Assembly (NCBI RefSeq): GCF_046105845.1
Contig: NZ_CP151004.1
Direction: 5' to 3' (one strand)
DNA length: 64,000 nt
From: Escherichia coli
GTDB taxonomy: Bacteria; Pseudomonadota; Gammaproteobacteria; Enterobacterales; Enterobacteriaceae
Positions within the stretch are counted from its first letter, which is position 1; the number at the start of each line of letters is the position of its first letter. A program made the position numbers and the translations under genes. Shown piece by piece: positions 1-34,521 of this stretch. Below the pieces are notes generated by a model. The model saw only the letters and a list, made by a program, of their open reading frames with translations. It did no database searches and was not told the origin of the DNA.

Positions 1-1026
1 GAAATGCTGCGTCCCGGGCGCAAACTAGCCTCGCTGCTGGTGTCGCGTATCAAGGTGATGGCGCGGCTGGACATTGCCGAAAAGCGCGTGCCGCAGGATG
101 GACGTATTGCGCTGCTGCTGGGCGGTCGGGCGATTGACGTGCGTGTCTCCACCATGCCTTCTGCCTGGGGCGAGCGCGTGGTGCTGCGACTGCTGGACAA
201 AAACCAGGCCCGCCTGACGCTGGAGCGTCTGGGGCTGAGTCATGAACTGACCGCGCAGTTGCGCCAGCTACTGCACAAACCGCACGGTATCTTTCTGGTG
301 ACGGGGCCGACGGGTTCCGGCAAAAGCACCACGCTGTACGCCGGATTGCAGGAGCTGAACAACCATTCGCGCAACATTCTCACGGTTGAAGACCCCATCG
401 AATACATGATTGAAGGGATCGGTCAGACGCAGGTTAACACCCGCGTCGGCATGACCTTCGCCCGTGGCCTGCGCGCGATTTTGCGTCAGGACCCGGATGT
501 GGTGATGGTCGGTGAAATCCGCGATACCGAAACCGCAGAAATCGCTGTTCAGGCGTCGCTCACGGGGCACCTGGTACTTTCCACGCTGCATACCAACACG
601 GCGGTGGGGGCGATTACGCGTTTGCAGGATATGGGCGTCGAGCCTTTCCTGCTCTCTTCCAGTCTGACGGGCGTGATGGCGCAGCGACTGGTCCGCACGC
701 TGTGCCCAGACTGCCGCCAGCCTGCACCTGCCACTGACGAAGAAAAACGCCTGCTGGGAATTACCGACGCGCGTACTGTCACGCTTTACCATCCGCAGGG
801 CTGCCCCGCCTGTAATCACAAAGGTTTCCGCGGGCGTACTGCCATCCATGAGTTGATCGTGGTGGACGCCACATTGCGTGATTTGATCCACCGTCAGGCC
901 GGGGAACTGGAGCTGGAACGTTATGTCCGGCAACAGTCTGCGGGCATCCGCAGCAATGGCATTGAGAAAGTGCTCGCCGGAGAAACCTCTCTCGATGAAG
1001 TTCTGCGGGTAACCATGGAGGCGTAA
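1..1026 (+). CDS. gspE: Type II secretion ATPase GspE, 5' end cut by window edge
   Basis: ORF 4..1026 in frame to window start; Walker [11 protein letters not shown]-terminal CxxC...CxxC motif; followed by gspF-M. Confidence 0.93.
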
Positions 1027-2724: not shown

Positions 2725-3288
2725 GTGCCTGAACGCGGATTCACACTTCTGGAAATCATGCTGGTGATTTTCCTTATCGGCCTTGCCAGTGCGGGCGTGG
2801 TACAGACGTTTGCGACCGCTTCAGAGCCGCCTGCGAAAAAAGCGGCGCAGGATTTTCTGACTCGCTTTGCGCAGTTTAAGGACAGGGCAGTGATCGAAGG
2901 GCAAACACTCGGTGTACTAATCGATCCTCCTGGCTATCAGTTTATGCAGCGTCGTCACGGGCAGTGGTTGCCCGTTTCTGCGACCCGCTTATCGGCACAG
3001 GTTACGGTGCCAAAACAGGTGCAGATGCTGTTACAACCCGGCAGTGATATCTGGCAGAAGGAGTATGCGCTGGAACTGCAGCGTCGTCGCCTGACGCTGC
3101 ACGATATTGAACTGGAGCTGCAAAAAGAGGCGAAAAAGAAGACGCCGCAGATCCGTTTTTCGCCTTTTGAACCCGCCACGCCGTTTACGCTGCGCTTCTA
3201 CTCGGCGGCGCAAAACGCATGTTGGGCGGTAAAACTGGCACACGATGGCGTGTTATCCCTCAATCAATGTGATGAGAGGATGCCATGA
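2725..3288 (+). CDS. gspH: Type II secretion minor pseudopilin GspH
   Basis: GTG start; N-terminal GFTLLEIMLV prepilin motif. Confidence 0.85.
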   Translation: MPERGFTLLEIMLVIFLIGLASAGVVQTFATASEPPAKKAAQDFLTRFAQFKDRAVIEGQTLGVLIDPPGYQFMQRRHGQWLPVSATRLSAQVTVPKQVQMLLQPGSDIWQKEYALELQRRRLTLHDIELELQKEAKKKTPQIRFSPFEPATPFTLRFYSAAQNACWAVKLAHDGVLSLNQCDERMP

Positions 3289-3656
3289 AGCGCGGATTTA
3301 CCTTGCTGGAAGTGATGCTCGCGCTGGCGATTTTTGCGCTGGCGGCCACGGCGGTGTTACAGATTGCCAGCGGTGCGCTGAGTAATCAGCACGTTCTTGA
3401 GGAAAAAACAGTAGCGGGCTGGGTAGCTGAAAACCAGACCGCGCTGCTCTACCTGATGACCCGCGAGCAGCGGGTGGTCAGGCACCAGGGCGAGAGTGAT
3501 ATGGCAGGAAGCCGCTGGTACTGGCGAACCACACCGCTGAATACCGGTAACGCGCTGCTCCAGGCGGTGGATATTGAAGTCAGCCGTCACGAAGATTTTT
3601 CGTCGGTGATTCAGTCACGACGCGCCTGGTTTAGCGCCGTGGGAGGCCAACAGTGA
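3285..3656 (+). CDS. gspI: Type II secretion minor pseudopilin GspI
   Basis: N-terminal KRGFTLLEVMLA prepilin motif; ATGA overlap with gspH stop. Confidence 0.87.
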   Translation: MKRGFTLLEVMLALAIFALAATAVLQIASGALSNQHVLEEKTVAGWVAENQTALLYLMTREQRVVRHQGESDMAGSRWYWRTTPLNTGNALLQAVDIEVSRHEDFSSVIQSRRAWFSAVGGQQ

Positions 3657-32276: not shown

Positions 32277-32358
32277 GATGCCCTCCAATATGGTTATTTT
32301 TTATTGTGAATTAAGATAGGTGAGTACGACGTAAAAAGATGTGAAGCAAATCACATCA

Positions 32359-32374
32359 GTGTAATCGCTTACAC
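32359..32374 (-). promoter_or_regulatory. GalR/GalS operator upstream of galP
   Basis: GTGTAATCGCTTACAC matches the gal operator consensus GTGKAANCGNTTMCAC, about 85 bp upstream of the galP start. Confidence 0.55.
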
Positions 32375-32434
32375 TAACATTTATCTTGGTTATGATTTAA
32401 GTGCATGAAAATAATTGAGTTATATCATCATAGA

Positions 32435-32650
32435 TTAAACGCTGTTATCTGCAATTAAGACTTTACTGAAAAGAAATGTAACAACTGTGAAAGCTGAATA
32501 ATAATATGAAAATATTACAAATATTTGGCTGGCGTGGTTGGTGTAATCGGTTTCAGTAGTGATGGTAATTTGCGGTAAAACGTGTTGAGGAAGAATGATG
32601 TTATTGTGCGGGCGGTTTTTTTGCCGGATGCGGCGTGAATGCCTGTCCAC
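32435..32650 (-). CDS. yqgD: Small ORF at the K-12 yqgD position; coding status uncertain
   Basis: 71-aa ORF with GTG start lying inside a REP-like sequence, between the metK terminator and the galP promoter. Confidence 0.3.
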   Translation of the reverse strand: MDRHSRRIRQKNRPHNNIILPQHVLPQITITTETDYTNHASQIFVIFSYYYSAFTVVTFLFSKVLIADNSV

Positions 32651-32661
32651 CGCGGTGAGGT

Positions 32662-32693
32662 AAAAGAAAAAGGCCAGCGCGAGGCTGGCCTTT
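32662..32693 (-). terminator. Rho-independent terminator of metK
   Basis: Minus strand: AAAGGCCAGC-CTCGC-GCTGGCCTTT followed by TTCTTTT. Confidence 0.7.
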
Positions 32694-32712
32694 GAAAGCA
32701 GGTGAAGAAAGA

Positions 32713-33867
32713 TTACTTCAGACCGGCAGCATCACGCAGCAGCTGCGCTTTGTCGGTTTTTTCCCACGGGAAATGTTCACGACCAAAGTGACCGTATGCT
32801 GCGGTTTCTTTGTAGATCGGGTGCAGCAGATCCAGCATCTGAATCAGACCGTATGGGCGCAGGTCGAAGAATTCACGTACCAGCAGAGTCAGTTGTTCAG
32901 AAGGCACTTTCTCAGTACCGAAAGTTTCTACCATGATGGAAGTCGGTTCAGCCACGCCGATTGCGTAGGAAACCTGAATTTCACAACGATCGGCCAGGCC
33001 AGCAGCAACGATGTTTTTCGCGACATAACGTGCTGCGTAGGCTGCGGAACGGTCCACTTTTGATGGATCTTTACCAGAGAATGCACCGCCACCGTGACGC
33101 GCCATGCCGCCGTAGGTATCAACGATAATTTTACGACCAGTCAGACCGCAGTCACCCATCGGGCCACCGATAACAAAACGACCGGTCGGGTTGATGAAGA
33201 ATTTGGTGGCAGAAGTCAGCCATTCAGCCGGCAGAATCGGCTTGATGATCTCTTCCATTACCGCTTCTTGCAGCGATTTCTGGTCGATTTCTTCAGAGTG
33301 CTGAGTGGAAAGCACGACAGCATCGATACCAACGATTTTGCCGTCGTCATACTGGAAAGTCACCTGGCTTTTCGCGTCCGGGCGCAGCCACGGCAGAGTG
33401 CCGTTTTTACGCACTTCAGCCTGACGCTGTACCAGACGGTGTGCATAGGTGATAGGCGCTGGCATCAGCACGTCGGTTTCATTGGTTGCGTAGCCAAACA
33501 TCAGACCCTGGTCACCCGCGCCCTGTTCCAGCGGATCGGCACGGTCAACGCCCTGGTTGATGTCAGGAGACTGTTTACCGATGGCGCTCAGAACCGCACA
33601 GGAGTTAGCGTCAAAGCCCATGTCGGAATGTACATAGCCAATTTCGCGAACGGTGTTACGGGTGATCTCTTCGATGTCTACCCAGGCGCTGGTGGTGATT
33701 TCGCCGCCAACTAAAACCATGCCGGTTTTTACGTAGGTTTCGCAAGCAACGCGTGCTTTCGGATCCTGTTCGAGGATCGCGTCTAAAACGGCATCAGAGA
33801 TTTGGTCAGCAATTTTGTCAGGATGCCCTTCAGAGACGGACTCGGACGTAAAAAGGTGTTTTGCCAT
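32713..33867 (-). CDS. metK: S-adenosylmethionine synthetase
   Basis: 384-aa product from [18 protein letters not shown]. Confidence 0.96.
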
Positions 33868-34170
33868 ATTTAATATCACCTAAAGAGAATTTGGTTAGCT
33901 CAAACTGTTGTGTGGATTTTCTGTGGTAGCGGATCCTACCACGACTCTGCAGGTTAAAAACACTGGCAGTCTGAGTGTTAATCGGTATGGATGGATTAAC
34001 ATCTGGATGGCTATTTTAGGTCAGTTCTTCACCCAATTTCCACTTTTTTTTGAATCGTGTCTCATTCTGTTAAAAACGTGGCTGGAAATTTTTCCTGACA
34101 ATGCTGGCATTCTGCGTATTTATCTTTTGCAATTTTCTGCCATTGTGGGGTATAAAACGCGGCGCGCGGC

Positions 34171-34386
34171 TTAAATAAAAAGCACACGACGTTTCTTTCG
34201 TGTTGCCACTTCCAGCCGGGTTGAAATCAGAGTTTTGGCTTGTGGGTTCGTCTTAACAGGCGGCCGTGGAGGTGATACGAAATAATGAACCGTTGTCTGC
34301 TGCTTAACCTGTCTCACCGTTCTGGTGAAGATTCGTTCCCCGCACTCTGCATCTCTGCTTTGCATACCTGCCGATGTTATACCCAT
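34171..34386 (-). CDS. Small ORF, possibly yqgC
   Basis: 71-aa ORF in the metK-speA intergenic region; no other support. Confidence 0.2.
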
Positions 34387-34521
34387 CTCGGCGCTTCTCA
34401 GGATTCAAGAGCTGGTTACAGTTACTGAGGACTGAACAAGGGCGCTCTTGTAAAAACAAGAGTTTTCTCGTGGTTTCGCCGAACTGTCACACTTACGTTC
34501 GGTTATGTGCTTAATAATGTT

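Follow-up and report, generated by a model that had tools for sequence, protein, structure and literature searches.

The window, i.e., the whole stretch of 64,000 nucleotides that was analysed, originates from a non-K-12 strain of Escherichia coli: in its segment 32250..32750, identity amounts to 99.8% with strain JNE23-011 and to 94% with strains of the K-12 type. This segment includes the 436-bp spacer between metK (methionine adenosyltransferase; CDS 32713..33867) and galP (galactose:H+ symporter; CDS 30882..32276), which are both encoded on the minus strand and were assigned from the open reading frame listing together with, for metK, an identical protein and the annotation in K-12 and RefSeq genomes and, for galP, the K-12 and RefSeq annotation. 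Behind metK, the terminator scan places an intrinsic terminator on the same strand (stem 32669..32693, T-rich tail 32659..32668), which comprises a 10-bp stem with six G-C pairs and a 5-nt loop, is conserved across Escherichia, and dominates the predicted fold of the RNA spanning 32590..32712 (z = -3.07). As the original prediction had it, a mechanical open reading frame (ORF) of 71 codons with a GTG start (32435..32650, minus strand; ORF listing) does begin just downstream of this terminator, 18 nt past its stem. We judge this ORF, which shares the spacer with a REP-type motif, to be spurious. On the far side of metK, and divergent from it, the ortholog of yqgD is found on the plus strand (33923..34174; 82/83 identity to K-12 YqgD, in agreement with K-12 and PGAP annotation). 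No gene is annotated in the metK-galP spacer of K-12 (3087861..3088283, NC_000913.3), and in 30 of 30 genomes sampled evenly from 5425, PGAP annotates nothing but metK and galP under the match. Likewise, an Rfam scan of 32000..34500 (E <= 1) revealed no known RNA family, and its sole match, Brucella sRNA CI337, is meaningless at 19.8 bits versus a gathering score of 229.

The REP-type motif could be confirmed: GCCGGATGCGGCGTGAATGCC (32623..32643, plus strand) agrees with the canonical REP core GCCGGATGCGGCGTGAACGCC in 20 of 21 bases, and two matches with at most three mismatches to the core occur in the 64 kb, where 0.01 are expected, the second one being located at 26597..26617. Based on the core match and on alignment to complete BIMEs (those of L002, L003, L004, L093 and L094, see below), the element can be delineated as a degenerate z-type REP on the minus strand (32622..32651) that represents the surviving half of a BIME. 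When compared with the features that define REPs and BIMEs, including a GTAG 5' of the palindrome foot and the y, z1 and z2 REPs of the Bachellier classification (Ton-Hoang et al. 2012, PMC3333891), the window copy resembles other E. coli elements in its core and in its extragenic location, with the metK stop (32713) on one side, the galP start (32276) on the other, and a gene's terminator immediately before it. It differs from an intact REP, however, in that (i) the 5' arm is mutated and carries a 1-nt deletion, although loop and 3' arm are intact, (ii) the GTAG foot is missing, the window reading ...CCGCGG-TGGAC... where L002 reads GTAGGCCGGATAAGG, (iii) the y-type inverted REP (iREP) has been lost together with most of the linker, in the window as well as in K-12, and (iv) the window allele folds no better than its shuffled versions (z = -0.31), with the REP stem being absent from the minimum-free-energy fold. 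The K-12 allele still folds a short REP hairpin (GGAU.GGCG/CGCC..AUCC). The window REP is a relic, namely the remnant of a larger BIME rather than an intact REP, which had been overlooked originally.

In sister lineages, the orthologous site still holds a complete BIME. Such an element, made up of a y-type inverted REP (AATGCCTGATGCGCTACGCTTATCAGGCCTAC), a z-type REP and a short linker between them, is carried by L002 (labelled E. coli; identity in the flanking genes 95-97%), L003 (Escherichia sp.; 97-98%) and L004 (E. albertii; about 92%), and in L002 its z-type REP exhibits the GTAG foot (GTAGGCCGGATAAGGCGTTCACGCCGCATCCGGCA). L093 and L094 also possess a complete BIME between metK and galP, and the long form of the complete BIME was encountered in 9 of 5426 complete E. 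coli genomes. For a broader comparison, the galP locus was fetched from 80 Enterobacteriaceae species, and the metK-galP spacer was extracted where both genes were present (n = 70). Among these 70 species with metK-galP synteny, a REP core at this site is confined to Escherichia; none was found there in Salmonella, Citrobacter, Klebsiella or the other non-Escherichia genera sampled. In L094 (E. coli 2020CK-00188), the sequence directly following the metK stop and the terminator (430..520) are E. albertii-like and not E. coli-like, which, in combination with the full BIME of this spacer, suggests an import by recombination.

Within E. coli, the surroundings of the relic are variable. Pairwise and population alignments identify a 13-bp segment (32650..32662; TACCTCACCGCGG on the minus strand) that is present in the window and absent from K-12-type strains, and for which no convincing alignment to the linker of the complete BIMEs was obtained. 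Its last base is the G of the ORF's GTG, and the deletion junction in K-12 yields a TTG. A perfect 10-bp palindrome, CACCGCGGTG (32648..32657, containing CCGCGG), is located at the edge of this segment. On its other side, the relic adjoins a homopolymer tract (32616..32622; A7 on the minus strand), for which the E. coli population alignment contains the variants A5G, A6, A7 and A8, and which differs again in sister species. Indels accumulate locally in this A-tract, a hot spot through which the frame of the ORF is shifted in many strains. The REP core itself varies at 3 of its 21 positions among 11 haplotypes, and its flanks contain indels. A candidate terminator on the reverse strand, GCGGGCGG followed by T7, was discarded: the T-run falls inside the predicted hairpin, and z is just -1.68.

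A comparable BIME resides elsewhere in the window, between yggR and ruvX (26561..26622), and comprises a y iREP that is intact (TGCCTGATGCGCTACGCTTATCAGGCCTAC) and, across a linker of 4 nt, a z REP without 5' arm, its GTAG being fused to TCATTCACGCCGCATCCGGCA, so that this element is another partly deleted BIME. The annotation of NC_000913.3 lists no REP features, not even in the yqgF (ruvX)-yggR spacer of K-12, which is the counterpart of this BIME region. In strain PEC240 (L091), the metK-galP spacer contains an IS1 (2819..3513), inserted a few bases ahead of the galP operator O_E described below (equivalent to window position ~32561), so that the galP control region is cut off from metK and the REP relic.

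It is this control region that underlies most of the ORF, a point that had likewise escaped notice. The GalR consensus GTGNAANCGNTTNCAC, a 16-bp dyad, has two matches in the 64 kb, both in the metK-galP spacer. The one retrieved by pattern search at 32541..32556 (minus strand; CTGAAACCGATTACAC) has one mismatch to the consensus, coincides with codons 32-37 of the ORF and is identical to the distal GalR/GalS operator O_E of galP published in Table 1 of Qian et al. (2016; PMC5110547). The second, GTGTAAGCGATTACAC (32359..32374, minus strand), is a perfect consensus match and corresponds to the published proximal operator, named O_I there; no sequence difference from the published regulatory region was noted. 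In K-12, the two operators occupy 3088004..3088019 and 3088186..3088201, and the distance of 182 bp between them is the same in the window. A scan for palindromes additionally yielded TGTGATTTGCTTCACA (32340..32355, minus strand), which adjoins the proximal operator and is a putative CRP site: we presume that it belongs to CRP on account of its match to the textbook consensus TGTGA-N6-TCACA. The primary paper on the control of galP by NagC, GalR and GalS is reportedly that of El Qaidi et al. from 2009.

In most of the 70 Enterobacteriaceae species, O_E is positioned at about -280 and O_I at about -100, that is, with a spacing of about 182-184 bp and at a fixed distance from the galP ATG. Upstream of O_E, the DNA is of freely varying length, and the metK-galP spacers of the 70 species range from 208 to 2086 bp. 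From the ORF, it is solely the motif E(S/T)DY(I/T) that recurs in other genera, and this motif is the translation of CTGAAACCGATTACAC. Since E(S/T)DY(I/T) represents translated O_E, the conservation seen under the ORF is that of regulatory DNA, and not that of a protein. The most conserved stretch of the ORF is the published galP operator O_E. What the comparison adds to the published description of the promoter is that the ORF covers the galP control region, and that most of the Enterobacteriaceae sampled share the two-operator geometry.

One may ask whether the REP remnant, although non-coding, is nonetheless functional on metK read-through RNA, where it might serve as a 3' stabilising hairpin or as a back-up (Rho-assisted) terminator that shields the galP control region from metK transcription, a role described for intact REPs. 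REPs have been demonstrated to act as context-dependent terminator or stabiliser elements in 3'UTRs (bioRxiv 10.64898/2026.03.23.713779), a location between tandem genes suits such a role, and the small hairpin that the K-12 version still forms would be placed just past the metK terminator. Taking the analysis as a whole, we nevertheless consider such a function rather unlikely. The hairpin of the window allele is indistinguishable from shuffled sequence, its GTAG foot and 5' arm are gone, its core positions and flanks vary between haplotypes as described above, and the non-Escherichia genera sampled exhibit the same operator geometry without any REP. Moreover, a strong intrinsic terminator is located upstream, and few transcripts should therefore reach the REP remnant.

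We then turn to the ORF itself, which exists, though its start is not the one originally described. The GTG within the REP motif (32634..32636) is on the plus strand, where its frame stops after 7 codons, while the ORF's own GTG is the reverse complement of the CAC at 32648..32650 and lies outside the 21-mer, 5 nt past its end. The N-terminus is indeed the REP read as protein: codons 1-10 fall within the 30-nt degenerate REP (32622..32651), and codons 3-10 (..RHSRRIRQ) represent the reverse complement of the REP core. For an assessment of the frame across E. coli, 11 haplotypes were aligned, nine of which were drawn from an evenly spaced ranking of 5425 genomes and complemented by the window and K-12. 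The frame is intact in five, frameshifted in five and interrupted by a nonsense mutation in one. Intact frames start with GTG in the window, LF82 and O157:H7, and with the TTG of the deletion junction in K-12 and 14EC017. Frameshifts are found in SSGNw2, C5, ST131 and IAI39, whose A-tract region is shorter by one base, and in MLI106K4, which has A8; in 23CRST029, the ORF is interrupted by CAA>TAA. Depending on the strain, the ORF thus starts with GTG, with TTG, with a different ATG, or not at all, the C-terminal frame being devoid of any canonical start codon in 5 of the 11 haplotypes. In each of the 11, the last 44 codons form an open frame. Of 5426 complete E. coli genomes, 2399 contain the frameshifting 42-mer in exact form and 1878 the exact in-frame A7 43-mer; the frameshifting haplotype accordingly occurs in at least 44% of these genomes. 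In ST131 (L085), a C>T SNP in the REP core, at the equivalent of ~32635, creates an ATG from which the frame runs for 66 codons, a possible explanation for the 66-aa entries in databases.

Signals for initiation could not be identified: the 20 nt that precede the ORF (TTTTCTTTTACCTCACCGCG) are devoid of a Shine-Dalgarno sequence, and the promoter scan returned no promoter-like site on the ORF strand, on which the terminator is located 18 nt further up. The pattern of substitution is likewise not that of a protein under purifying selection. The ORF contains 30 distinct SNPs, of which 6 are synonymous, 23 nonsynonymous and 1 nonsense, where about 28% synonymous changes are expected under neutrality, and the same SNPs read in the two alternative frames give 12 and 9 synonymous changes, i.e., more than the 6 of the ORF frame. 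SNPs are densest around the REP relic and the spacer and sparsest in the promoter-proximal part. Measured against 71-codon windows from 31 long ORFs of the same 64-kb window, the codon usage of the ORF yields a log-likelihood ratio of -0.076 log2 units per codon, which is below 99.4% of the real-gene windows. In relatives, the ORF frame is closed, both in sister Escherichia and in other genera; in L002-L004, it is open for merely 16-45 codons, and without a start. Taken together, frame maintenance, purifying selection, initiation signals or a promoter, and host-like codon usage, as they would be expected for a coding gene, were not found for the ORF.

Database searches point in the same direction. 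The ORF matches no family in Pfam or NCBIfam, and a search of 5.8 billion proteins retrieved 29 small clusters, all of them 'hypothetical' proteins of Escherichia/Shigella, mostly labelled 'partial' and with lengths of 59-110 aa. The presence of a 71-codon ORF alone carries little weight, because the 64-kb window contains 201 mechanical ORFs of this length (71 aa) or longer, 107 of which are mostly contained, in another frame, inside longer ORFs. With spurious ORFs derived from repeats, the ORF shares (i) N-terminal residues that are a REP read in a stop-free frame, (ii) a remainder of low complexity, rich in Phe, Ile and Tyr, that stems from AT-rich promoter DNA, and (iii) the sporadic annotation as 'hypothetical, partial'; its assignment to this class rests on the coding tests performed here. 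The doubt that the original prediction cast on the ORF as a gene is supported, with population, comparative and compositional tests being concordant.

Could the ORF, all the same, encode a genuine small protein of some E. coli lineages, that is, an incipient de novo gene translated from metK read-through? Its predicted product would have a basic N-terminus and a hydrophobic tail. The 71 codons are intact in the window, in LF82, in O157:H7 and in K-12-type strains, which amounts to a sizeable minority of E. coli, the abundance of the in-frame A7 haplotype given above likewise speaks for a gene, and gene callers now and then annotate the ORF as hypothetical in some assemblies. The PIRT-seq data have no entry at its position, which does not count as a negative result for translation. 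Yet it would have to be translated without a Shine-Dalgarno sequence from a non-ATG start that differs between strains, and from RNA arising directly behind a strong terminator and without a promoter-like site. In addition, the widespread frameshift, the nonsynonymous excess with its nonsense allele, the non-coding codon usage, the closed frame in sister Escherichia and the lack of family matches all speak against a protein-coding role, which we thus regard as highly improbable. Equally little credence can be given to the narrower scenario in which, in lineages with an intact frame, occasional read-through of the metK terminator would lead to low-level translation of a 71-aa peptide from REP relic and promoter DNA. 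If true, the locus would offer a snapshot of the birth of a de novo ORF from a repeat that is still polymorphic within E. coli.

The notion that the ORF is K-12 yqgD or its ortholog, as implied by the label under which it was first described ('K-12 yqgD position'), is refuted by gene order and sequence comparison: nothing but closeness to metK speaks for it, whereas yqgD (b2941, 83 aa; 3086399..3086650, minus strand, in NC_000913.3) is located upstream of, and divergent from, metK both in K-12 and in the PGAP annotation of strain PEC240, and hence across metK and on the strand opposite to the 71-codon ORF, its real ortholog in the window is the almost identical plus-strand gene described above, and BLASTP produces no alignment between ORF and YqgD. 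That true ortholog matched no family from Pfam or NCBIfam, though K-12 annotation names a DUF2684 domain-containing protein.

With the anatomy of the spacer, its polymorphism in the population, the absence of coding signatures and the identity of O_E as observed above, the metK-galP segment can with high confidence be interpreted as non-coding DNA, in which the 71-codon ORF is a chance open frame that extends over a decayed REP and the galP control region. As far as can be judged from sequence, the ORF is almost certainly not a gene. On the minus strand, the order is the metK terminator, the decayed z-type REP, a variable spacer with the unstable A-tract, and the galP upstream region bounded by O_E and O_I. 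We infer that a BIME was already present at this site in an ancestor within Escherichia, and that nearly all E. coli have since deleted the y-type partner and most of the linker. The REP that was left behind is by chance free of stops in the ORF frame, giving rise to ..RHSRRIRQ, the AT-rich promoter-distal DNA by chance remains open for some 60 further codons, and an indel junction supplies the start codon. Because the REP remnant follows a strong terminator and has, in the window strain, lost most of its hairpin, it presumably has little or no function of its own. The finding is ordinary, and it does not challenge current understanding.

Its relevance is that of a cautionary case for annotation and is otherwise minor. 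It corrects the position of a mislabelled gene, yqgD being situated across metK, and it demonstrates that an ORF starting in a REP, such as this one, should not be annotated. Furthermore, it documents a deleted BIME in the metK-galP spacer of most E. coli, beside the known galP operator O_E, and the presence or absence of the REP as well as the polymorphisms of the A-tract could be used as lineage markers.

Finally, some of the Enterobacteriaceae sampled depart from the common layout of the spacer. Three genomes of Silvania and Leclercia (L052, L053 and L062) have a spacer of ~209 bp whose only operator-like site is positioned at about -138, the usual sites at -100 and -282 being absent, which suggests that their galP promoter region has been remodelled. 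In Buttiauxella agrestis (L050), the spacer extends to 892 bp, and in Yokenella regensburgei (L075) to 2086 bp, the latter containing an open frame of 215 codons; given these lengths and the open frame in L075, something was therefore presumably inserted there.
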